Of a stretch of 43,865 nucleotides of DNA, positions 4,704 to 43,802 are shown piece by piece. This stretch comes from Escherichia phage vB_EcolP_P433.1. Made by a program: the position numbers and the translations under genes. Location: the sequence record MN384978.1, one strand, 5' to 3'. The stretch's first letter is position 1; every line of letters starts with the position of its first letter. The notes beneath the pieces are model-generated. The model was not told the DNA's origin and did no database searches. It saw only the letters and a list, made by a program, of their open reading frames with translations.

Positions 4704-6758
4704 TTATAACCATTCAGGCACAATAACCTCTCCCATTGAGAAGTTTGCTGCCTCACCTTCTCTACTGCACAAACGATACTTCTTATCTACTACTTCCCGT
4801 GTGTCTGTAGAAACTATGTTGTAGCAGATGTTATTAGCTGCTCTATGAACATAAGAATTTACTACTGGCTTACTTCCATCACCTTTTGCACGCGTACCAT
4901 CAATGAAGCAAGATTCTACAAGTAACAGGCCAGCAACTAAGTTGTTGCCTGTATCCCAGTCCAATATAGTCTCATTAAACTCTACACGACCTTGTGCATA
5001 AGTGGTTCCACCAGAGTAGCCTGCAAATCGACGAACGATACCACCTTTATTCTTGATGTAACTACGAGTATTGAAAGTGACAAGGTTCTTGTATTCAATA
5101 TCCATATTACATTCAAAACCTATAATACAACTTGCATATTCGTTACGATAACCTATATAAGCATCAACCTTACAACCTTTAGAGTAAGCAGGTGTAAGTT
5201 TTACAATAGGAACTTCACGAGTTGTTGCATCATGATATGATAGCGCGTATTCATAGCGGGCATTCTTTCCATGGAATACACTCCCTGTGAAGTCTATCAG
5301 TGTAGGCATCACAAAGTCACGCAATATAGGTGACACACTAGTCTTGAAGTTATTCTTGTAAGATACAATATTCAAGGTAACAGCATCAGGCCAGTGGATC
5401 TCTGATTCCACTATAATCTTACGAGGAAGATGCAATGCGCGAGGTTGAACCGGATTACCAGATGATAACACATTATCAGAACGGCACAGAATAAGGTCAA
5501 CAATACCTGTCTTTCCTTCTGGTACTCGTATGCTACCACCTTTGACAATAATGTCACCTTTGTGCTCACCATAATCAGTACGAACACCAAAGGACATAAT
5601 GTTGGAGTTAATGATACGAGTCTGCTCATCGAAGGCACCAGTGCCAACTAAGACACCTTCTTTTACAGTAGAATTATCTACTAGAACTCCAGAGGAGCCG
5701 TAGTGTAAGTGAAAGCTAGGGACAACAGAGTCACGAAGTACCACATCACGGCAGTAGTTACCATCAGCGAAACGCCATCCAGAACCACATGTGCAACCTA
5801 AGAAGGAATGCTTCAATGTATATTCCATAAGGATGGAATAACGAGAGTTATTATCAGGCTGAGGCCCGCCACTCATATTAACATGCCAGTTGACACCATA
5901 TGTATCTCCGCTTGATAATATGCTACGATCAACAGGTACTGAAATGTTACTATCAACCACGCCGTACACATTTACCTTAGAGCGAGTAATGTTGAATGCC
6001 CACTTTGTAACTGCGCCTTTGAACTTAGGAAGCACAACAGTGATGTACGATGCAGGCAACTTATACAAGGTGCAAGTAACACCGCTATTATATGTGTTCT
6101 TGAATGTATAAGCCAGATTACCTGACTTAGTCATCAAGTTAACCTCACATTTCATTCTGGCATCATATCTACCATTAAGGTAGCGATAAAGATCAACCTC
6201 TTGGCTGGTGATCTTAACCAAACTATTATCCCAGCCATCAAGACTTTCTGACACATTAAGTTGATTACTTAACTCTGTCAAAGGGTAGTTAATTACAGTG
6301 AAAGACTTAGACACATCAGTTCGCTCATCTGCCAATGTAACATTGCCACCTGTTAGGTTAAATGTCAAATTACTCAAGTCCATGTCACCATATAGTGTCA
6401 CGTCCTTGTTGATATTAATCTCGGTAGGTACAGAAGCGTAAACCTTGATACCATAACCTCTCAGTTGAGAAAATACCGTATTTAGGCCATCTGCATCTTT
6501 GGTAGGTAAGAGGGTAAGAAGATCAACACCTTTGGATGTGTCAATAATTGAAGTCCACTTACCTTCACCAATACCTTCTGTGAAGGGACTTGAACCGGGA
6601 TTCACAGTATGAGGGTAATCACCAGACCATACATAAATGTCTCTATTAAACAGGAACATATCAGCCATGCCTTGTGCCACACCACCACCCTCAAAGGTGT
6701 TTAATGTTGGTACATTAAGACTGAGTACATTACGTCCTGCACGTGTTAATCCAGCCAT
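4704..6758 (-). CDS. tailspike / receptor-binding protein (about 684 aa)
   Basis: Large Ser/Thr/Asn/Gly-rich ORF; the track start at 6818 is TTG, so the start is placed at the ATG at 6758 with TAGGAG RBS; directly downstream of the phage promoter at 6838-6860. Confidence 0.7.
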   Translation of the reverse strand: MAGLTRAGRNVLSLNVPTLNTFEGGGVAQGMADMFLFNRDIYVWSGDYPHTVNPGSSPFTEGIGEGKWTSIIDTSKGVDLLTLLPTKDADGLNTVFSQLRGYGIKVYASVPTEININKDVTLYGDMDLSNLTFNLTGGNVTLADERTDVSKSFTVINYPLTELSNQLNVSESLDGWDNSLVKITSQEVDLYRYLNGRYDARMKCEVNLMTKSGNLAYTFKNTYNSGVTCTLYKLPASYITVVLPKFKGAVTKWAFNITRSKVNVYGVVDSNISVPVDRSILSSGDTYGVNWHVNMSGGPQPDNNSRYSILMEYTLKHSFLGCTCGSGWRFADGNYCRDVVLRDSVVPSFHLHYGSSGVLVDNSTVKEGVLVGTGAFDEQTRIINSNIMSFGVRTDYGEHKGDIIVKGGSIRVPEGKTGIVDLILCRSDNVLSSGNPVQPRALHLPRKIIVESEIHWPDAVTLNIVSYKNNFKTSVSPILRDFVMPTLIDFTGSVFHGKNARYEYALSYHDATTREVPIVKLTPAYSKGCKVDAYIGYRNEYASCIIGFECNMDIEYKNLVTFNTRSYIKNKGGIVRRFAGYSGGTTYAQGRVEFNETILDWDTGNNLVAGLLLVESCFIDGTRAKGDGSKPVVNSYVHRAANNICYNIVSTDTREVVDKKYRLCSREGEAANFSMGEVIVPEWL

Positions 6759-8134: not shown

Positions 8135-8416
8135 TTATACTGGAACAATACTTTCTGCTGTCTTTGTCTGATCCCACTCACTTGTAGGTCCACTTCCACG
8201 AGACAACATCAGCACTCCCTCTTCTGTTACAATCATAGCTCCAATTTGCTTACCAGACTTTGTTGTGTCATTAATAACACTAGCTTGCTTTGCTGGATTA
8301 TATAAGGCATTATCAGTGTTAACACTTGGAACCATTAAGTGTTCACTAACTGGTTGTACCTGTTTTCTGTCATATCGGCCTGTAAGTGGCTGATTACTGT
8401 ATTCGTTAGCCATCAT
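8135..8416 (-). CDS. hypothetical protein (93 aa)
   Basis: ATG at 8416 with TAGGAG RBS; first gene downstream of the promoter at 8548-8570. Confidence 0.45.
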   Translation of the reverse strand: MMANEYSNQPLTGRYDRKQVQPVSEHLMVPSVNTDNALYNPAKQASVINDTTKSGKQIGAMIVTEEGVLMLSRGSGPTSEWDQTKTAESIVPV

Positions 8417-8547
8417 ATCTCCTATTATAGTTAACTATAGTAAGGAAGTAAGGAATAGGGTGTACAGGAGTACACCCATACTAAGGCATACCTATATAAC
8501 CTAGGTTAACCTATATTATCCTTGTTATTCTCTTATTCTCTGGGCCT

Positions 8548-8570
8548 TCCTTCTATAGTGTCCAGTAATT
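8548..8570 (-). promoter_or_regulatory. phage RNAP promoter AATTACTGGACACTATAGAAGGA
   Basis: Read as reverse complement; overlaps the terL stop codon; followed by a 130-nt AT-rich leader. Confidence 0.7.
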
Positions 8571-9300
8571 AATAAGTCCTTGAAATCCTTGCAGAAATGG
8601 TGTTTCGATTGGAAGACTTACTCCGGTAATTTTGCCCATACACTCGCCGCTGCATCGCCACAGAAGTGTTGGTTACTTTTCGCTCAGTCCCGTAATCTCC
8701 ATAGAGCATGGCCCTGCGGAGGTGAGGTGTGTTCATAGCTTGGATGTAATCGCGCATCTCTTGCGCTCTGAGGCGATTAATCCGTGTAACCTCATCATAG
8801 TCTATCTGAGAAGTTAATTGCCGTATAGCGCCGTACAGAGCGTCTAAGCGGTCATCGTGCCGGAGGCTGTTCTTCTCGATCGTGATGTTCGACATTTGAT
8901 TGAAAAGGCTATAGGACATGCGTAGCTCAAGCGGATAGTTCTGTACTGACTCAAAGTCAGACTTGACCATCTCAGCATTGAAGATGAGCCTGTGGGCCGC
9001 CATGAGTGGCTCCAGTGTCTCAATGATACGCAACTCTTTCTGTCCTGTGGCGTAATCCTCTTCCAGCGTTACAGGCCACTCTCGTTCAAAGTACGGCTTA
9101 ATTACGGCCTCAAACGCGCCATGACCGAAGTTTTTCTCTATGAATACCTCTTTAACACCCGCCTGCTTTGCGGACTGCACAATGCGATTCAGGGACGATT
9201 CGCGGTATCCACCCGGTACACCGAAGCACTGATACACGTAAATGAATGTGCCGTGCAGGAAGACAATCGCTACACCCGTTTCGTCCCCGTTCTTACCTCC
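8569..9300 (-). CDS. terL: terminase large subunit, exon 2 (nuclease domain, 243 aa)
   Basis: Frame begins GGKNGDETGVAIVFLHG, i.e. mid-way through the conserved nuclease motif, with no ATG or RBS of its own; in frame with exon 1 if the 9301-10046 insert is spliced out. Confidence 0.7.
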   Translation of the reverse strand, partial: GGKNGDETGVAIVFLHGTFIYVYQCFGVPGGYRESSLNRIVQSAKQAGVKEVFIEKNFGHGAFEAVIKPYFEREWPVTLEEDYATGQKELRIIETLEPLMAAHRLIFNAEMVKSDFESVQNYPLELRMSYSLFNQMSNITIEKNSLRHDDRLDALYGAIRQLTSQIDYDEVTRINRLRAQEMRDYIQAMNTPHLRRAMLYGDYGTERKVTNTSVAMQRRVYGQNYRSKSSNRNTISARISRTY

Positions 9301-9826
9301 CGGTTTGAACGTGACGTGCGAGCCAACCCTTGTGGTGTTTACGCAAACCACGTGCCACCTTACGCATATTCTGAGGTGTTAGGTTGTGCTCTTTACAGAA
9401 GTCAGTAATGCAAGTTACAAGAAACTCTTCACCATCTGGAGAAGTGAATATGTAATCTTTGCCAGTACCTTTGTTGTAAGGTGTCATGCCTTTCTTGAAC
9501 TCAGTAGCAACAGACAAGTGCTGTCCTTTCTTTATTTCAGTGGCAATACTTATGCGTTCACCTTTCTCGATGTTACCTGCTTTGCGATAACCACCTTTAC
9601 CCTTATTCCAACCAATGTTGTCATGTGGGCGTAGCTTTTCTTCTAGTGCATAACACTCTTCTTTGCTACCAGTGAATAAGATAACGTACTCGCGGCCATC
9701 ACAAAGACGGCCTGCGCACTTGTGCTCTCTCATACGCTTCTTAATATCGGAGGTTACACCAATATAACCTTGCATTACATCAGTTTCACCAACAACACGA
9801 ATATGATAAACTTTATGCTCTGTCAT
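9293..9826 (-). CDS. GIY-YIG homing endonuclease (177 aa) encoded inside the terL intron
   Basis: KVYHIRVV...GYIGVT...RMREH GIY-YIG module at the N-terminus; NUMOD3-like repeats (ISIATEIKKGQHLSVATEFKKG); AGGGAG RBS before the ATG at 9826; stop codon lies 8 nt inside terL exon 2. Confidence 0.8.
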   Translation of the reverse strand: MTEHKVYHIRVVGETDVMQGYIGVTSDIKKRMREHKCAGRLCDGREYVILFTGSKEECYALEEKLRPHDNIGWNKGKGGYRKAGNIEKGERISIATEIKKGQHLSVATEFKKGMTPYNKGTGKDYIFTSPDGEEFLVTCITDFCKEHNLTPQNMRKVARGLRKHHKGWLARHVQTGR

Positions 9827-10046
9827 ATTTAACTCCCTTCAATTGTTACGTTAATTCGCTACTTTAACTTCCACTAGTCACCTAGTGGGTCGGACTATAT
9901 CTTAGGCTTGCGCCTCCCTCTGTTTCAGACCGCTTGGCCTTACAGTTAGTCTCTACACGTTCCTATCATTGCAACAGGCTTCGCTCGGTATTGTCTCAGT
10001 GAGAGTTCCACCGAATTAAGAGGGTTTTACGCTGGCAGAGGTGTTT
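9301..10046 (-). mobile_element. putative group I intron (746 nt) interrupting terL
   Basis: P1 pairing between exon end GCUGGU and internal guide GCCAGC; P10 pairing between exon-2 start GGAGG and CCUCU; terminal G at 9301; R-like AGAGACUAACUG (rc of 9943-9954) and S-like AAGAUAUAGUCC (rc of 9891-9902) core elements; splicing restores one 632-aa terminase frame. Confidence 0.65.
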
Positions 10047-11213
10047 ACCAGCAGGGTCAATATACATAATCTTACGGGTAACAGCACCCCATTCATACGG
10101 TCGGGCCACAGGCCGATACATGACATCTGTAGGCTTATTGCCATACTTCGGTGCGTCGCCAATGATGTTAATAGAATCATTGCTCCACGTAGGCATCACA
10201 GGAACTTCCTCTGTACCGAATGAAGTGAAGATGAGGTTGTTCAAGCGAAGTGGGTAGCGGTCAGCGTCCATCATGCGAGTGTTAAGCATAAACTGAAGCT
10301 GGAACTTAGCCGCACCCTGCGATATTTCCTTCTCGATCAGGACATCATCATCATACATTTCAGGTGCACAAGGAGCACCACTGTTACCGTCTAACCCATA
10401 ACCAGAGCGAAGTGCTGGGTTATCCTTCATATCCTGCACAATCATAGGCGCAAGGAAGTCACCATAGCATTGCTCCTGCTCCACTGAAGGGTAACGTGCA
10501 GTCCAGATACGAACAGAGTAACCACGAGCAGGTAAGTTATTGTAGATAGAGTTTACGTTCTGAGGTGTACCAAGGTAGATAATATCACCAAACTGGTTGA
10601 TAGATTCAAACTCTTTGGTCAATTCCTCAAGTAAGGCACGGCCTGCTGCTGTACGAGCATTCTGCATCGACTCAACGTCATCTGCAAGGATGATATCTGC
10701 ACGAGCACCCTGCATGCCTGCTTCGATTGAATAGCAGGATACAGAAGGTGACTTATCGCTACCACGTAAAGTGTAGTGAATCTCGAATGCCTTAACGGAT
10801 GCACGGTCTCCTGCGTAAATATCCGGTAACATAAACTCAAGGAAGTCTAAGCCACGAAAGATTTTAACTACCCAACCTGCGATTTCCTCTGCTCGCTTGG
10901 CGTTTTGGGATACAACCATTATACGCTTATGCGGTTCATGGATAATACGGAATACCGTATAGATTGCTGATAGTGTTGTCTTAGCGATACCACGAGGCGC
11001 TTCGATGAGTCGATACTTGTGTCCGTAGAATAGGAACTTCAAGATATCAGCCTGCATACGAATCAGATGAGGGTTGCCTGCAATCAAGTTATGAATAACT
11101 GTGTCTGCAAAGAGAAGCAAACCTTCCGCTGTATAGGGAAAGGTCTGCTGTAGTTCCTGTAGCATCTCCCATCTGGCAAGAGCCTCCGCTTGTGATTCTC
11201 TTGCCTTAGCCAT
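10047..11213 (-). CDS. terL: terminase large subunit, exon 1 (ATPase domain, 389 aa)
   Basis: Walker A PRGIAKTT and Walker B DIILADDVE; ends ...KIMYIDPAG at the proposed 5' splice site; the track ORF continues 16 codons into the intron before a stop at 9996. Confidence 0.75.
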
Positions 11214-34349: not shown

Positions 34350-34413
34350 ATTTATATCTCCTATATTTACTTAATTACCTATACTACCTTATAAACCTAG
34401 ATTACCTAGGCTT

Positions 34414-34436
34414 TCCTTCTATAGTGTCCAGTAAAT
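34414..34436 (-). promoter_or_regulatory. phage RNAP promoter ATTTACTGGACACTATAGAAGGA
   Basis: Read as reverse complement; about 70 nt downstream of the DNA polymerase stop. Confidence 0.75.
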
Positions 34437-34504
34437 CATGTTAGACAAAATAAGTGGGAATAAGTTATTCATAAAGGCCACCCGTAAGTGACCTTGAGTA
34501 TAAC

Positions 34505-37711: not shown

Positions 37712-38377
37712 TTAAATATTCACGTAGGTTTCTTCAGTAACGATAGGGCAATAGACTAGGTGAGCTTCATTGACAATGAAGCCAAGTAAACCCTGCTTCT
37801 TGATAATGTGATTAACTATAGCTGCAAAGTTCTTATTAGCTACATTACGAGGCGCACCCTGTTCTGTGATTGCATGGTCAATATCCATGATTCGCACAGG
37901 CACATTCGGATGCATCATAGCTTCGCCAATCTTCACCATAGCTTGCCCTGTGGATTTACCTAATGCACGAGTATTAAACTGTGTAACACCTAATGCAGTG
38001 CCACATAGCTTAATCATTTCACTTTGAGTCTTACCAGTGACTACATTGCGTCGCTCTTTCTTGAGTGTGGTGCGTGTACTACTCATAGGGTTATTGGAAG
38101 AGTTAAATACTTTCAACATCTGACTAGTGCAACGCGCACACACATGAGATTCGTTGACACTGTGTGTACAGGTGCATTGATGTGTTGGGTCTTCCACCTT
38201 CTCAAGGTATTTATGGACACAGGATTTAATGTAACCCTCTTCTACTTGGCTTTGTTGGTAACGAATATAGTATAAGTCCTTTGTTTTACTAATGACTACA
38301 CCTATCTCACGTTTGTGGTTGGAATATTTGTTTATGTTACGAACTTTGTCACCTACATTCAATACTAATTTATACAT
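37712..38377 (-). CDS. hypothetical protein with Cys/His zinc-ribbon-like motif (about 221 aa)
   Basis: HQCTCTHSVNESHVCARC cluster; start placed at ATG 38377 with GGAG RBS (track start is TTG). Confidence 0.5.
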   Translation of the reverse strand: MYKLVLNVGDKVRNINKYSNHKREIGVVISKTKDLYYIRYQQSQVEEGYIKSCVHKYLEKVEDPTHQCTCTHSVNESHVCARCTSQMLKVFNSSNNPMSSTRTTLKKERRNVVTGKTQSEMIKLCGTALGVTQFNTRALGKSTGQAMVKIGEAMMHPNVPVRIMDIDHAITEQGAPRNVANKNFAAIVNHIIKKQGLLGFIVNEAHLVYCPIVTEETYVNI

Positions 38378-38416
38378 AATCAATCTCCAGTTATTTAATG
38401 TACTTAATAAGAGCCT

Positions 38417-38453: not shown

Positions 38454-40442
38454 TCAGAACTCACTTTCTTCATCGAAGCCGGTCTCTTCTATAGTGTCCG
38501 GTAAATCCGGTACTTCTTGTTGCCTTGCTTCCCCTGTATCAAATGACTTAGTACGGGCTTGTGGTTCCATTAAACGTCCGGTTTGAATGTCACCCTTAAG
38601 CATGACCTTGGTTCCAGTGTAGATACCTTGGTCGCGGTCTTTGACACATGAGATGTACGTGGTAGTCCTTTCATCAAGCGTTTCAGCTCTTGTATTACGC
38701 TCAATCCCCAAGGCGTAAGATGCCCAGAATCCGATAGCACCTGAGCCTCGGAAGTCAGAAAGGATAACTTCGCCACCTTCTTCGTGCTGGACTCGGTTTC
38801 CCGCAGGGCGAGTAAGGTGCGAGACAAGGAATATAGTAACTGGGTGTCTGTCTTTGATAGTACCAATCCGCTTGACGCATTCATCAAGTGCACCAACCTT
38901 CCCACCAAAAGCACGCTCATCTAATTTAATCCCCGTTAAGTTATCAATGATGATATTAGAAATACCCATAGCCTCAAACTCAAGGCAAGTCTGCTCTACC
39001 TTCTCCATTGAGTAGTCACCTTCTAGGTCAGCTACGAAGAGCTTCCCTGTATCAGCGACATAGTCAATGGCAGCATTAGCTTCTTCCTCAGTATAGTCGA
39101 ACACCTCGCGGTATCCATCTTCTTTCGGGTCGTTGGTTGGCGGTAGTTCAATACGCTTATCAATCCACTTGCCGATAAAAGCACGAGACACTTTGACCAT
39201 CGGGTCTTCTGTAGAAATAATGCCTACGGATTCACCGTGTTCTTCGATGAGGTGCTTAACCACTTCACGGAGGAACTCAGTCTTACCTACACCAGAGCCT
39301 GCGCCTACAATGATAAGCTGGTTCTTACGGATACCTAGCGTTACTTTGTTCAGCTTAGGCCAAGGCCATGACAGCCCTTGCTCTGGTCGTGCGGCCTTAA
39401 GTTTATCCCTTTGAGATGCAATAGATTTAATCTGGCTACCAAAGACTTCATCAGACGACTTGGCATTAAACCACGCATCTACAAATTCTTTAGCCTTGCC
39501 AGCCATCAATGCCTTATTGGCATCTTTGCACCCAGAAGGGTACTCAAGAATATAGGATTTGCCGGGAAAGAGGCGAGCCGCTTGTTGGTTCTGCTTCTGC
39601 CCTACTTCATCCCCATCGAAGCCCCAAATAATCTTCTTGAATTGGGCGATGTGTTCACGGTTCTGCACAATCTCTTCAAGGCAAGATTCACCCTTATTAA
39701 CAGACCATACGTGGTAGGGCTGGCCTTCCCACTTAGTGCCTTTGGCAGAATCAAGGAGCATCTGTTGTGCTGCTAGTGCATCAAGCTCTCCGCCTACAAT
39801 AAGCAAGCAATCCTTCCGTCTTCCCTTGTCTAACACGTGAGACAAAGTATTCATACCGAAAAGATCTTGCATACCAAAGAGCTTACCTAGGTGACCAAAC
39901 TTAAAGTCTTTAGGTAAGGTACGGCACTTAGCGCCTACTAGCTCACCTCTCTCGAAGCGTGGATAGTAATGCCGTGAGACTCTACCCTCTTCATCGTGTC
40001 CGACACGTACATCATACAATGCGCAAATGTCGCCGCGAATGTGTCGGGAAACAAGATTCTTACGCTTAAGCGTGAGGAACCATTCAACATCAAGTTTCCA
40101 CTCTGCTTCTTGGTCTGCCCTTTCTTGCTCATTCATGACCTCCCAACGGTCTTTCATACGCATACCACCAAGTGCGATGGCTCGCAGCTTAGGGTCGCTT
40201 ATCTTCCCTTCCCTCTCCATCTCTTTGAATTGAGAAGGTGTGTATTTTATGTTGCCAGTAATAGGCAACTCGGTGATCTCGATACCGCCGTCTGGCTTGT
40301 GGTAGTATGGCTTGCCATTATCATGGAAGTGACCACGGTTACAATAGCCAGCACCATCATCAAATATCATGAGATGGTTGCCGGATTTATCGTGTCCATT
40401 CTTCTGGCAAGCAGGGCACGGGATGTTATTAATAATAGCCAT
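38454..40442 (-). CDS. DNA primase-helicase, T7 gp4-like (662 aa)
   Basis: N-terminal zinc ribbon CPACQ...YCNRGHF; helicase Walker A GAGSGVGKTEF; acidic C-terminal tail ending in Phe (...TGFDEESEF) as in T7 gp4. Confidence 0.9.
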   Translation of the reverse strand: MAIINNIPCPACQKNGHDKSGNHLMIFDDGAGYCNRGHFHDNGKPYYHKPDGGIEITELPITGNIKYTPSQFKEMEREGKISDPKLRAIALGGMRMKDRWEVMNEQERADQEAEWKLDVEWFLTLKRKNLVSRHIRGDICALYDVRVGHDEEGRVSRHYYPRFERGELVGAKCRTLPKDFKFGHLGKLFGMQDLFGMNTLSHVLDKGRRKDCLLIVGGELDALAAQQMLLDSAKGTKWEGQPYHVWSVNKGESCLEEIVQNREHIAQFKKIIWGFDGDEVGQKQNQQAARLFPGKSYILEYPSGCKDANKALMAGKAKEFVDAWFNAKSSDEVFGSQIKSIASQRDKLKAARPEQGLSWPWPKLNKVTLGIRKNQLIIVGAGSGVGKTEFLREVVKHLIEEHGESVGIISTEDPMVKVSRAFIGKWIDKRIELPPTNDPKEDGYREVFDYTEEEANAAIDYVADTGKLFVADLEGDYSMEKVEQTCLEFEAMGISNIIIDNLTGIKLDERAFGGKVGALDECVKRIGTIKDRHPVTIFLVSHLTRPAGNRVQHEEGGEVILSDFRGSGAIGFWASYALGIERNTRAETLDERTTTYISCVKDRDQGIYTGTKVMLKGDIQTGRLMEPQARTKSFDTGEARQQEVPDLPDTIEETGFDEESEF
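38484..38506 (-). promoter_or_regulatory. phage RNAP promoter ATTTACCGGACACTATAGAAGAG inside the 3' end of the primase-helicase gene
   Basis: CCG sub-class at -12 to -10; lies within the last codons of the helicase ORF. Confidence 0.6.
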
Positions 40443-40660: not shown

Positions 40661-40663
40661 AAC

Positions 40664-40792
40664 TTAGAACTCCCACGCTGCGCGTTTAGATGCACGGTCA
40701 CGGACAGGTTTATTCAGCTTCTTGCCTTTCTTCTGCCCTTCTTCCATGTCAAAACGGTTAGCTTTACGGGTCATCTTCTCAAAGTTACGCAT
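40664..40792 (-). CDS. gp1.1-like small basic protein (42 aa, MRNFEKMTRKANRF...)
   Basis: Not in the ORF track; GGAGA RBS before the ATG at 40792; the N-terminus MRNFEKMT and the length match T7 gene 1.1 product as remembered. Confidence 0.55.
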   Translation of the reverse strand: MRNFEKMTRKANRFDMEEGQKKGKKLNKPVRDRASKRAAWEF

Positions 40793-40817
40793 GGTTAAAT
40801 CTCCAAAGTGAGTTAGT

Positions 40818-40840
40818 CTTATCTATACTGTCCGGTAAAT
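40818..40840 (-). promoter_or_regulatory. phage RNAP promoter variant ATTTACCGGACAGTATAGATAAG
   Basis: G instead of C at -5 and a divergent initiation region; preceded 5 bp upstream by the palindrome at 40846-40861. Confidence 0.55.
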
Positions 40841-40845
40841 ACGAA

Positions 40846-40861
40846 GTCTCACATGTGAGAC
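40846..40861. repeat. inverted repeat GTCTCAC-AT-GTGAGAC
   Basis: Read directly; abuts the upstream edge of the promoter at 40818-40840. Confidence 0.6.
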
Positions 40862-41004
40862 AACCTAGGTCTGCCCTTCCTCTAAGTAGTAATAATAGGA
40901 AGGAAGAAGGTAATAGGTATTCCTAGGTAAACCTATATAACCTTTAATACCTATTATTTCCTTTTATATCCTTATCTTCCCTCCTCTTTCCCATCTCCGA
41001 TGGT

Positions 41005-41027
41005 TTCTCCTATAGTGTCCGGTAAAT
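41005..41027 (-). promoter_or_regulatory. phage RNAP promoter ATTTACCGGACACTATAGGAGAA
   Basis: First phage promoter downstream of the polymerase gene; CCG sub-class. Confidence 0.7.
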
Positions 41028-41031
41028 ATGA

Positions 41032-41047
41032 GTCTCACATGTGAGAC
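41032..41047. repeat. inverted repeat GTCTCAC-AT-GTGAGAC
   Basis: Read directly; about 75 nt after the polymerase stop and 4 bp upstream of the promoter at 41005-41027. Confidence 0.6.
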
Positions 41048-41119
41048 ACTTTATGTTAATGAAATGTTACAGGTAGTGGGTAAAGAAAAGGCCACTCCCG
41101 AAGGAATGGCCTATCAATA

Positions 41120-43802
41120 TTATGCAAAGCAATAGTCAGAAACTAAGATCTCTTCAAGGTTAAACTCCCCTTGCTCCGGCACTTGGATACCAGTATCCAC
41201 TAACCAGCGCTCTTCGTGCTCATCTAACAGGCTTTGCAGGGCATTACGTCCTTGGTACATTTTCACCATTTCTGCCCTTAAGCTATCCCGCAGGTCTGCG
41301 GTGCGGCCTGCATGAGTGCCAAAAGAGTCATGAATAACTGCAATGGATGTTATACCTTTATCCACGAGGTCACATACAGTCAGGATAAGGTGGCTAGCAT
41401 CATGACCATGAACAAAATTAGGAGCCGCTGCACCCATCATCGCCGTTTCATCAACTACGTCTGTTTCAATCTGGAGACTCATCTTGATTTCACCCATCAA
41501 GCAAGTTGATACGCGAAGCATATCGGTTGCCATTATCTTTTGTTGCAAGATGAAGCCAGTAGGCAAGGTGTATTCTAACCCTTCATTTCTTTTAGCTGCG
41601 AATCGTGCTAGTTGGCGAATCATTCTCATCGCCACTATAGGTGCTTTAACAACCTCAGAGATTGAAGGCCAGATTAAAGCCGTCATATAATTATAGGCCG
41701 CACCAGTAGTTAAGTAGTCTTTGCGGTCATTATCAAAAGGGTGCACAGGATTCGCCGTCCGCCCTTCTGCAATAGCTCTTTGCGCCTCTTTTTCTTCCAA
41801 ATCAACGATATAATCAATCACAGACTCACGGCAGGTTAAGCGGGTGGAACCATAAGGCAAGGTCATTACGGGCTTTTTGGTTAAGCCACGAGTGATACCT
41901 ATCATATCCCATGCGCTAGCCATGCTACGCAGTTCTGCTCCTGTAAGTGTCACGCTTCCAGAGGTGAAAGTCTCTGCATCATCTGCATTCATGTAAGCGT
42001 AATTCTTCTGGATAACCACTTGCGCCACCGCCCCATAAATATCTTGCGGTGAGTCTGACGGCTTAAGGTTTACCGCCTTAGCGCCTACTTCATCACGTAG
42101 CATCGCACTATAATGCTGAATACCAGAACAACTACCGTCTTGGTGTACTGGTAAGTGCGTCATGAATTGGTCTTGTGTACCTTCATCCAAAGCATCAAGG
42201 TAACGAGCATACTCAAAGCACCACGCAAGGAATCCATAAGGAGAATCAGCATTTACCCATTGAGTAAAAGTCAGCGGGTCGGCTGCAATATCGCGGCACA
42301 TATCTTGAAATTCGCCATCCAGCACATTAGCGGTGCGCACGTCAAAAGTTTTCTTATCCCAACCCCAGTTATTCGCCCCGTTCACCAAAAACCACTTAAG
42401 CGCCTCAGCGCTGTTTATAGTCTGCCCTTCGGTAAACCGTAGTAGCGCCTTGCCTAAGTCATTTGATTGCGGCGAGAGTGTGCTAGATTGCGCGTATACA
42501 CGGCTGCGGCTGTCCAGTGCATATACGAAGTAAATAGCGTTGAAGTGGCTGTATTTACGGGCCTGCCCGACCATGCGAACGGTTGCCGCCGATTTACTGC
42601 CGCGCTTAGTCTCTGCGGTGTACAGCTTGGTGCATTCACCTTTCCAGTTGATAAATGCGTGCCATTGTTCTGGGGTTAGCATTTCTTTTAGTTCACGACC
42701 GCGCAGGTGTTGGAACTCAAGAGGAACAGGATTAGCGGGCTTGTTCTCCCGGTCGATGAGTGGTTTAAAGGAGGGCACACCATAACCAAGATCGAGGCGG
42801 ATAACATCTTCAACAACCTGCAACACTTCCTTATTAACCTGCCACTTGGTCGCCTGCAAAGCGTTAACAGCCTTGTAAACCGCTGGCATTTGCTTTTTGG
42901 TTAGCTTGCGGACGTGCTCGCGGTTGCCTTTAACCAGACGGATACGGCTTGCCACTTTCTCAGTGTGAAAACCTCCATTAAAAGGGGACACCCAAGGGCG
43001 CGGAGGGATAACGCAAGGTGCATAGGCTGGACTAAGCTGCGCTACGTGCTCTTTGAAGGCCGTTATCCACTCCCCAACGTGTTCACTAGTCTGTAAGTAG
43101 TAAACGCCATGTTTGCCGCCGTTAGTGCGCAAGGTGCGGAGGAAAACAGGCTGCCCGTTGAAGAATACACTATTTTCCAAGATTTCTAGCAAGGTCATGC
43201 CTATTTGCAGCAAGGTATCCTTAGGCCATGCCTCCCAGCGGGAGAAATCAGCGTCACGGTCAGATACAGACTTCTCAGCCACAACTGCTACGTTGTGCGC
43301 ATGGCGATAGGATTTAGTCTTGCTTGCCTTAAGTGACTTCTTAACCTTCTCGAAGTATTTGGCGGCGTGACCTTCCAGCTTGCTAAATCGCACTTGGTCT
43401 TCAATGCGGTCAGCTACATTCATGGCTATGGCTTGCAAGGTTACATCTGTGTTCAACATATCCATGACAATCTTCATCGTGATATAGGCTGCCACTTCAT
43501 TTTCTACGCAGTTAATGAAAGCTAATGCACGAGGTGCACGGCCTCTTTTACCTTCATACTCTTCCTTGTATGCCTGAATACCTTCAGCCATTGGCGCGAT
43601 TAACTCGGATAATAAGCGGCGATTCCAAGCCGTATCCGATTCGTTACCGGATGCAATTTGGCGCTGTTGGTCTGCTTCAAAGCGACGAATACCGCCGTTA
43701 AACATTTCTTCTTCAAGCTGAAGCTGGATAGCGTGTAGGTCTAATACCGCCGTTAAACATTTCTTCTTCAAGCTGAAGCTGGATAGCGTGTAGGTCTTGC
43801 AT
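41120..43802 (-). CDS. single-subunit DNA-dependent RNA polymerase, SP6-type; 5' end disrupted by a 55-bp tandem duplication
   Basis: Near-identity over long stretches to SP6 RNA polymerase as remembered (e.g. [49 protein letters not shown]-terminus ...DYCFA). The RBS-preceded ATG at 43802 encodes [20 protein letters not shown] and then frameshifts; the intact frame 41120-43771 begins only at a TTG. Confidence 0.85.
43688..43797. repeat. perfect direct tandem duplication, 2 x 55 bp (43688-43742 and 43743-43797)
   Basis: Both units read AATACCGCCGTTAAACATTTCTTCTTCAAGCTGAAGCTGGATAGCGTGTAGGTCT; the bases flanking each unit differ, so the repeat is exactly 55 bp. Confidence 0.9.

Follow-up and report, generated by a model that had tools for sequence, protein, structure and literature searches.

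The window analysed here, the 43,865 bp of Escherichia phage vB_EcolP_P433.1 (MN384978.1), is a circularly permuted K1-5/K1E-like phage genome (genus Vectrevirus, SP6 supergroup) with all its genes on the minus strand, and our subject is a set of three leaders in it, which are conserved cis-acting modules located directly behind promoters of the phage RNA polymerase (RNAP). The region around these leaders is 84-91% identical to the Escherichia phages mutPK1A2, PSK8 and K1-5 and to many other Vectrevirus records. A degenerate SP6/K1-5 promoter pattern matches the window nine times, always on the minus strand, with an expectation of 0 by chance; two more promoters, at 40840 and 11424, come from a looser scan. 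Three of the nine matches head the leaders (8570-8547, 34436-34413 and 41027-41004), which confirms the leaders as transcribed, non-coding segments. In sense orientation, leader 1 extends from the +1 G at 8553 to ATG 8416, leader 2 from 34419 to ATG 34349, and leader 3 from 41010 to a second promoter (40840-40817), the next small open reading frame (ORF; ATG 40792) being found only beyond that promoter. An earlier note on this DNA had described untranslated leaders after promoters at 8548, 34414 and 41005; the stretches are indeed non-coding, but the intervening promoter at 40840-40817 means that leader 3 is no simple 5' untranslated region.

The core common to the three leaders is TAGGT. On the sense strand, 9 of its 66 copies in the window fall inside the 336 nucleotides (nt) of the leaders (binomial P = 2.3e-9). 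Clusters of at least three copies are restricted to leaders 1 and 2, joined by leader 3 when the motif is relaxed by one letter, and first-order Markov simulations predict 0.03 such clusters per genome. Another cluster, of AGGTT (5178-5117), is ordinary coding sequence of the tail-spike gene. The repeats form tandem units with the consensus W-N-M-T-A-G-G-T-A-R-T (95 units from the window and its relatives); the alignment of these units was anchored on AGG, which is thus fixed by construction, and the informative positions besides it are the T that precedes AGG and the T-A that follows it, the flanks being variable. Successive cores are 9-10 nt apart in 42 of the 69 intervals of the leader 1 sequences (31 of 10 nt and 11 of 9 nt), in 31 of the 36 intervals of the leader 3 sequences (20 and 11, respectively) and in seven of nine in leader 2 (six of 9 nt). 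Leaders 1 and 3 have a modal spacing of 10 nt and leader 2 one of 9 nt, each array has three to seven units, and all arrays lie on the transcribed sense strand. The earlier note had held that the leaders share two motifs that are not seen in coding regions. This is correct for GGTTATATAGGT, whose only two copies in the window are in leaders 1 and 3, both on the sense strand; CCTAGGTAA, however, also occurs inside genes on the sense strand (13612 and 39891). Nor is CCTAGGTAA common to the leaders, as the leader 3 copy is on the opposite strand (40922, plus) and leader 1 has CCTAGGTTA instead.

The DNA that carries these arrays is of low duplex stability. In nearest-neighbour calculations, leaders 2, 3 and 1 respectively hold the first, third and fourth least stable 60-bp duplexes of the 43.9-kb window (z = 3.1-4.1), and leaders 3, 2 and 1 the first, second and fifth least stable ones of 100 bp. 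Their AT content is 63-73%, versus 54.5% for the genome. Each leader array consists of three to seven direct repeats, about one helical turn apart, in AT-rich, purine-skewed and easily melted DNA. The second least stable 60-bp segment (38353-38413) belongs to another leader, behind a promoter at 38506, which has a palindrome but no TAGGT array.

K1-5, SP6 and Klebsiella phage K1-ULIP33 have all three modules at matching places. The post-terminase module is also present in 28 IMG/VR relatives (terminase C-terminus 64-97% identical), and the post-RNAP module in 25 relatives (L040-L064; at least 70% identity over the 150 C-terminal residues of the RNAP). The leaders are more conserved than the coding DNA that flanks them. 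Compared to K1-5, leader 1 is 95% identical (flanks 83% and 77%), leader 2 98% (flanks 92% and 77%) and leader 3 94% (end of the RNAP gene 88%); compared to SP6, the values are 81% for leader 1 (flanks 73% and 78%), 95% for leader 2 (flanks 92%, with only 25 nt aligned, and 78%) and 83% for leader 3 (end of the RNAP gene 73%). Leader 2 is 97% identical in K1-ULIP33, where the first 150 nt of the downstream gene reach 67%; across the three genera, it is thus 95-98% identical versus 67-78% over that part of the downstream gene.

Beyond these genera the architecture persists, in part with another core. Proteus phage PM85 (Acadevirus) has TAGGT arrays after its RNAP and terminase genes; the leader that follows its DNA polymerase gene is short and has no array. 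In Pseudomonas phage Achelous (Colwellvirinae), nine AGTAG units spaced by 9-10 nt follow the RNAP gene and about seven AGTAG or AGTGG units follow the terminase gene, in both cases with a phage promoter in front. AAGAG/TAGAG(CGGC) units follow both genes in Vibrio phage Vc1, and AAGAG arrays occur in further metagenomic relatives (L065, L071, L075, L084 and L088). No exact 5-mer arrays were detected in more distant relatives of the RNAP. The post-RNAP and post-terminase array leaders are kept across Molineuxvirinae, PM85 included, and with a different core also in Achelous and Vc1; the core is specific to each clade and common to both leaders within a genome. The similarity between leader 1 and leader 3 is 33 within Achelous and 28 within Vc1, versus at most 13 and at most 20, respectively, in cross-clade comparisons. 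In the TAGGT clade, the within-genome pairs are not systematically the most similar, with the exceptions of L035/L061 and L034/L064, which have unusual units in the same order. Because of this, the sharing is mainly one of motifs. Gene conversion was considered as its source and set aside, since within-genome similarity is clearly highest only across deep clades and in those two genomes; recent gene conversion fits the pattern less well than a shared requirement, whether physical or for recognition.

Two other explanations of the core were also discarded. The repeats might have mimicked the -17 to -10 half of the SP6 promoter (ATTTAGGT), an idea that was rejected because the arrays stay TAGGT where the promoters differ at those positions (TACTGG in the window and K1-5, TAGAGACC/AAGACC in PM85, TGTGGCGAG in L035/L061 and TAGGGCGG in L034/L064), which makes binding by the RNA polymerase unlikely. 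Sponges for CsrA (GGA) or Hfq (ARN) were dropped by eye, as the cores read GGU and not GGA and the ARN register is poor.

Leader 1 also contains a hairpin, which the earlier note had described, exactly, as perfect over 8 bp (GGGTGTAC-TCCT-GTACACCC on the sense strand). Its position is held in the relatives (+74 to +114 from the transcription start) and its stem varies: GGGTGTAC/GTACACCC in the window, K1-5 and K1-ULIP33, GGGAGGTA/TACCTCCC in the SP6 group, GGGTAC/GTACCC flanked by GGGA...GACC in L024 and L028, GGGAC/GTCCC in L014 and L034, and GGGTACTC/GAGTACCC in L035-L038. In an alignment of nine distinct sequences, 84.7% of the cells are paired, versus 29-54% when the partner column is slid; this alignment was anchored on the loop by the analyst, which favours the structure, but the orthologous position and the flanks (CCTTAGT upstream and a pyrimidine tract downstream) are independent of the anchoring. 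Five of the eight pairs show double compensatory changes, and none of 500 shuffles reached the observed covariation. The L032 variant pairs through a G-U that would be an A-C mismatch on the opposite strand, which hints, if weakly, that it is the sense strand that folds, as RNA or as displaced DNA. The compensatory changes across five stem variants support the structural role proposed for this hairpin, and the motifs of the leaders are both strongly enriched over base composition and conserved in related phages. Taken together, these results uphold the suspicion of the earlier note that the leaders contain functional, non-random elements.

What the leaders do is best approached through T7. The replication of this phage starts at phi1.1A/phi1.1B, with secondary origins that include phiOR and phi6.5, and every T7 origin requires a T7 promoter (PMC8373140). 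In the T7 annotation, phi1.1A is located at 5848, phi1.1B at 5923, gene 1.1 at 6007 and phiOR at 39229. Judged by gene order, leader 3 is the positional counterpart of the T7 primary-origin region: both have the succession of RNAP gene, terminator, promoter, AT-rich non-coding DNA, second promoter and gene 1.1 homologue, and it is the homology of the downstream ORF to T7 gene 1.1 that ties leader 3 to this slot. Leader 3 shares the low duplex stability of the T7 region, and T7 also has a cluster of short repeats there (four copies of TTAAG in 75 nt after phi1.1B). Leader 3 differs in its greater length (about 145 nt), its phased TAGGTA units, its predicted long hairpin and the 16-bp palindromes that bracket it. 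By the same standard, leader 1 is the positional counterpart of T7 phiOR. Both promoters directly follow the terminase large-subunit gene, with a leader of 137 nt in the window and of 160 nt before gene 19.5 in T7. The gene downstream of leader 1 is nevertheless unrelated to that of T7, the T7 phiOR leader has no clear repeat array and, unlike phiOR/phiOL, the promoter is not near the genome end, since about 8 kb of genes follow it in SP6-like phages (8416 to about 2900 in the window).

A plausible, if still tentative, interpretation is that the leaders are replication-promoter modules of the T7 type. It is favoured because of the positional homology, the tandem promoters, the instability of the duplex, the helical spacing of the repeats and the separation of the leader 3 array from the start codon: as a second promoter stands between this array and the next gene, mRNAs of that gene need not all carry the array. 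From the anatomy, enrichment, spacing, conservation, covariation and positional homology described above we infer an origin activity that could proceed through an R-loop and a hand-off between polymerases. The phage RNA polymerase would transcribe into the low-stability repeat region, where the purine-rich transcript would stay hybridised to the template as an R-loop. The downstream hairpin and its U/C-rich tail would then pause or release the polymerase, after which the transcript's 3' end would be passed to the phage DNA polymerase and the primase-helicase would load on the displaced strand. The phased repeats might serve as a scaffold that bends and unwinds easily, or else be bound by a lineage-specific factor.

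Several observations weigh against a role in replication. No replication data for any SP6-like phage were found in the literature searched. In T7 itself, the TTAAG cluster that follows phi1.1B is only modest and phiOR is followed by nothing clear, and the AT-rich repeats of leader 3 sit between its two promoters and not after both as in T7. T7 origins are not known to require repeats or a sequence-specific factor, and the AT content of the leaders is below that of the T7 AT-rich region (79%). Nothing in T7 corresponds to leader 2, which adjoins a ribosome-binding site directly and is missing from PM85, Achelous and Vc1. The purine skew is weak in the post-terminase leaders of Achelous and Vc1. 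The space between the two promoters, where the leader 3 array lies, is also that of the T7 RNase III site R1.1. Finally, the GCA triplet of the SP6 primase is absent from the arrays; a single copy lies at the 3' end of leader 3 (40874-40872), where it is kept in K1-5 and SP6 and not in K1-ULIP33. As 5'-GCA-3' is the recognition site of this primase (PMC2034472), the idea that the arrays are primase sites was dropped.

As the main alternative, the leaders could act as RNA. In T7, promoter-plus-AT-rich origins and RNase III sites are both textbook elements. RNase III-type processing, mRNA stabilisation, or attenuation/termination ahead of genes 41, 15 and 8, with the repeats as building blocks of imperfect helices, is a possible explanation, if a doubtful one. 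It would account for the fixed position of the leader 1 hairpin with its five stem variants and compensatory changes in five of eight pairs, for the G-U pair of L032 that only the sense strand tolerates, for the covariation of the 5'-proximal hairpin of leader 3 and for the placement of all arrays on the transcribed sense strand. The leader 1 hairpin moreover passes a loose terminator scan with its T/C-rich tail, but this tail (TATTCCTT, 5 T in 8) is not a U-run; the tails are more T-rich in some relatives. Whole leader 3 folds better than its shuffles in the window (z = -2.5 to -2.7), SP6 (-2.1), K1-ULIP33 (-2.9), L061 (-4.8) and Vc1 (-2.2), and in all five an irregular hairpin of at least 25 bp is predicted. 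The predicted long irregular hairpin lies in the transcript between the tandem promoters downstream of the RNAP gene, the place of R1.1 in T7. The sequence similarity to R1.1 is nevertheless limited to a short pyrimidine run, the element is much larger, and RNAalifold found no conserved long-range helix in the aligned columns of leader 3, where the repeats make column homology unreliable, recovering only the 5' hairpin and the terminal palindrome. Folding is no better than that of shuffles in the Achelous leader 3 (z = -0.3), in leader 1 (-1.1 to -1.3 in the window, -0.8 in SP6, -0.3 in K1-ULIP33) or in leader 2 (-0.7 to -1.1). Rfam 15 has no family that matches the leaders, either in a gathering-threshold scan of the whole window or in a permissive scan of each leader, where the best scores are at chance level (SNORA63 19 bits, MIR2118 20 bits; E 0.15-0.47). 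The strict spacing of 9-10 nt also lacks an obvious rationale in RNA. The T7 gene 10 leader likewise combines a phage promoter, a stem-loop and sequences upstream of a strong Shine-Dalgarno (SD) sequence, but its stem-loop is at the 5' end, whereas the leader 1 hairpin is 77 nt away from it, and that model leaves the repeats unexplained. Beside the SD of leader 1, UUAACUAUA resembles the T7 epsilon sequence (UUAACUUUA); this string is not conserved in K1-5. The processing sites, translation enhancers or transcript stabilisers that the earlier note had suggested are not the best fit for the arrays, given their DNA-type spacing, their low-stability DNA and the location of two of them at T7-origin positions. 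In T7, the origin and RNA-processing roles coexist in one region, and they may also do so in the SP6-like leaders.

A further scenario, which overlaps with that of replication promoters, is that the TAGGTA repeats are an iteron-like array to which a lineage-specific phage protein binds (a promoter regulator, an origin-binding factor or a packaging protein), either on one face of the DNA helix or, as an oligomer, on the repeats in the RNA. Like the iterons of plasmid and lambdoid-phage origins, the arrays consist of several direct repeats at about one helical turn beside an easily melted region. At least three direct repeats in helical phase, with a six-position core (T-AGG-T-A), variable flanks and a fixed spacing of 9-10 nt, speak for a bound protein, as do the clade-specific core (TAGGT, AGTAG or AAGAG/TAGAG) common to two leaders per genome, the motif-level sharing in the TAGGT clade without wholesale gene conversion and the near invariance of leader 2 across genera. 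We nevertheless consider this scenario unlikely. Replication and transcription of the T7 type need no such factor, the units are shorter than those of classical iterons (9-10 versus 17-22 bp), the arrays are always transcribed and always in sense orientation, and they could arise by slippage under compositional selection. No candidate protein was found, in a search for an initiator that was limited to four adjacent small ORFs, none of which PHROGs annotates as DNA-binding or as an initiator, and the small neighbouring genes are not conserved between clades. It is similarly improbable, if conceivable, that, in SP6-like phages and related Autographiviridae subfamilies, the repeat core behind the post-RNAP and post-terminase promoters co-evolves with a lineage-specific factor, in which case the origins of these phages with single-subunit RNA polymerases would be recognised by a factor, as iterons are, and unlike the promoter plus AT-rich DNA of the T7 textbook model.

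A role in translation has little to recommend it. The AGGU(A/G)AU units are Shine-Dalgarno-like and could serve as enhancers or ribosome standby sites that raise the local concentration of ribosomes for genes 41, 15 and 8; six of seven positions agree between AGGUAAU and AGGUGAU, which makes up the 3' part of the extended SD complement, and in leader 2 four units lie directly upstream of a strong SD. Only leader 2 fits, however: the second promoter of leader 3 (P') separates the array from gene 8, T7 has a different motif in the same host (TTAAG versus TAGGT), the architecture persists in Pseudomonas phage Achelous with a core, AGTAG, that has no SD likeness, and the gene that follows the DNA polymerase gene of PM85 has a short leader without an array. 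That the leaders have no specific function, being by-products of AT-rich composition, of replication slippage or of recombination between homology blocks of mosaic phages, is hardly credible: array copy number does vary and, in relatives, indels and homing-endonuclease genes cluster beside leaders 2 and 3, but base composition falls far short of explaining the enrichment, the leaders are more conserved than the flanking genes, with a sharp drop at the start codon, the hairpin has compensatory changes and the architecture persists across subfamilies.

SP6/K1-5-type phages are widely used, both as sources of RNA polymerases and in phage therapy against capsulated E. coli, Salmonella and Klebsiella, and the role of the T7 replication promoters and AT-rich regions is itself understood only in outline. 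In the literature searched, we found no account of how replication starts in these phages and no description of phased TAGGTA arrays, of clade-specific shared cores or of a covarying hairpin in leader 1; the 2004 genome papers of SP6 and K1-5, which were outside this search, may mention them. The analysis yields conserved targets that can be mutated (three arrays, one covarying hairpin and a tandem promoter pair), together with a comparative rule: a single clade-specific core lies behind both the post-RNAP and the post-terminase promoters. If the modules are origin elements or factor-binding sites, they would be useful to engineer phage replicons and to annotate origins in thousands of Autographiviridae genomes; if they act in RNA processing or attenuation, they would matter for the prediction of gene dosage in engineered phages.

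Table 1 Features of the three leaders and of their immediate surroundings, in sense-strand order within each leader
Feature	Position	Strand	Remarks
Leader 1 promoter (AATTACTGGACACTATAGAAGGAA)	8547..8570	-	+1 G 8553; directly after the stop codon of the terminase large-subunit gene
Purine-rich initially transcribed region (GAAGGAAGGCCCAGAGAATAAGAGAATAACAAGGAT)	8518..8553	-	67% purine over +1..+75
Leader 1 TAGGT array	8488..8517	-	Three cores, from 8513, 8503 and 8494; spacing 9-10 nt
CCTTAGT heptamer	8480..8486	-	Just 5' of the hairpin; most relatives have CCTTAGT or CCCTAGT
Hairpin GGGTGTAC-TCCT-GTACACCC	8458..8477	-	Perfect, 8 bp; T/C-rich tail; weakly terminator-like score
Pyrimidine-rich tract (TATTCCTTACTTCCTTACTATA)	8436..8457	-	Partly complementary to the purine-rich 5' end of leader 1
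AT-rich spacer and Shine-Dalgarno AGGAG (8423-8419)	8417..8435	-	Ahead of ATG 8416 of the K1-5 gp41 homologue (ORF 8135-8416)
Leader 2 promoter	34413..34436	-	Perfect consensus match; +1 G 34419; 68 nt past the DNA polymerase stop codon
Leader 2	34350..34419	-	Four units at 9-nt spacing (CCTAGGTAAT, CTAGGTTTA, TAAGGTAG, TATAGGTAAT; 34410-34377)
Intrinsic-terminator-like hairpin	41089..41112	-	Directly after the RNA polymerase gene; upstream context of leader 3
Palindrome GTCTCACATGTGAGAC	41032..41047	-	Just upstream of P
First tandem promoter P (leader 3)	41004..41027	-	+1 G 41010
Leader 3 5'-proximal hairpin CCATC-GGA-GATGG	40991..41003	-	Covaries: CCGTC/GACGG, CCCTC/GAGGG, CCTTC/GAAGG
Purine-rich stretch	40941..41010	-	Most purine-rich 70-nt sense-strand window overall (81%, z = 4.4)
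Leader 3 array (AATAGGTATT, AAAGGTTAT, ATAGGTTTAC, CTAGGA)	40921..40955	-	Spacing 9-10 nt
Pyrimidine-rich 3' arm (ATACCTATTACCTTCTTCCTTCCT)	40897..40920	-	Predicted to pair with the array and purine-rich region as a long irregular hairpin
Second GTCTCACATGTGAGAC palindrome, with T-rich tail	40846..40861	-	End of leader 3
Second tandem promoter P'	40817..40840	-	+1 G 40823; conserved non-consensus core CAGTATAG
Small basic ORF, T7 gene 1.1 homologue	40661..40792	-	56% identity, E 1e-12

The features of the leaders are listed in Table 1. In leader 1, the promoter is followed by a purine-rich start, three repeat units, the CCTTAGT heptamer, the hairpin, a pyrimidine-rich tract, and the SD and ATG; the position of this promoter is kept in K1-5, SP6, K1-ULIP33, PM85 and the 28 IMG/VR loci. 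Two overlapping palindromes, AGGTTAACCT and AACCTAGGTT, are part of the array. Small upstream ORFs (ATG-CCT-TAG and an ORF of 14 codons) were considered and discarded, as they are not conserved, SP6 having ACG in place of ATG. The heptamer has a parallel elsewhere in the genome: at least ten CCTTAGT(G/A) repeats occupy the genome-end region (2655-2360, minus strand; 286-412 in K1-5 and 224-347 in SP6), an array analogous to the CCTAAAG repeats beside the terminal repeat of T7.

The units of leader 2 are followed by an AT-rich spacer, an SD (AGGAG, 34362-34358) and ATG 34349 of the K1-5 gp15 homologue. Only 68 nt (34437-34504, minus strand) separate the DNA polymerase stop codon from its promoter. 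The same junction holds genes 13.5 and 14 in K1-5 and K1E and an HNH homing endonuclease gene in K1-ULIP33, a variable content that makes it an indel hotspot.

Leader 3 is organised as promoter, 5' hairpin, 70 purine-rich nt, four units, their pyrimidine-rich complement, a 16-bp palindrome and a second promoter. The core of P' is CAGTATAG in the window, K1-5 and PM85 and CACTATTG in SP6 and K1-ULIP33; judging from its sequence, P', which precedes the gene 1.1 homologue and the primase-helicase gene, looks deliberately weakened. The 16-bp palindrome GTCTCACATGTGAGAC, with its T-rich tail, lies upstream of phage promoters not only at 41047-41032 and 40861-40846 but also at about 38440-38425 (minus strand); in SP6-type phages it takes the covarying form GTCCAACGTGTTGGAC. 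Promoters of Pseudomonas phage Achelous and Vibrio phage Vc1 are flanked by related motifs (GTCTCAC and GTTTCAC, respectively). This palindrome could be a terminator or pause site of the phage RNAP, or else a protein-binding site.

The genome has further peculiarities. The terminase large-subunit gene is split by a group I intron (9871-10078, minus strand; Rfam RF00028, 63.6 bits, E 6e-14), with the ORFs 9999-11213, 9296-9826 and 8572-9351 (minus strand), exon 2 having the RNase H-like domain of the T7 terminase and the intervening ORF giving weak GIY-YIG and NUMOD (homing endonuclease) matches; the gene is also split in Klebsiella phage K1-ULIP33 and not in K1-5. As for the limits of the window, its first position is at the end of a gp6-like ORF and its last one just upstream of the RNAP gene, which places the physical genome ends inside it, at about 2300-2900. 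The RNA polymerase gene has at its 5' end a perfect tandem duplication of 55 bp (43688-43742 and 43743-43797); since 55 is not a multiple of 3, ATG 43801 is out of frame with the ORF of 883 codons. Either the duplication is real and shifts the reading frame, or it is an artefact of assembly close to the point of circularisation.

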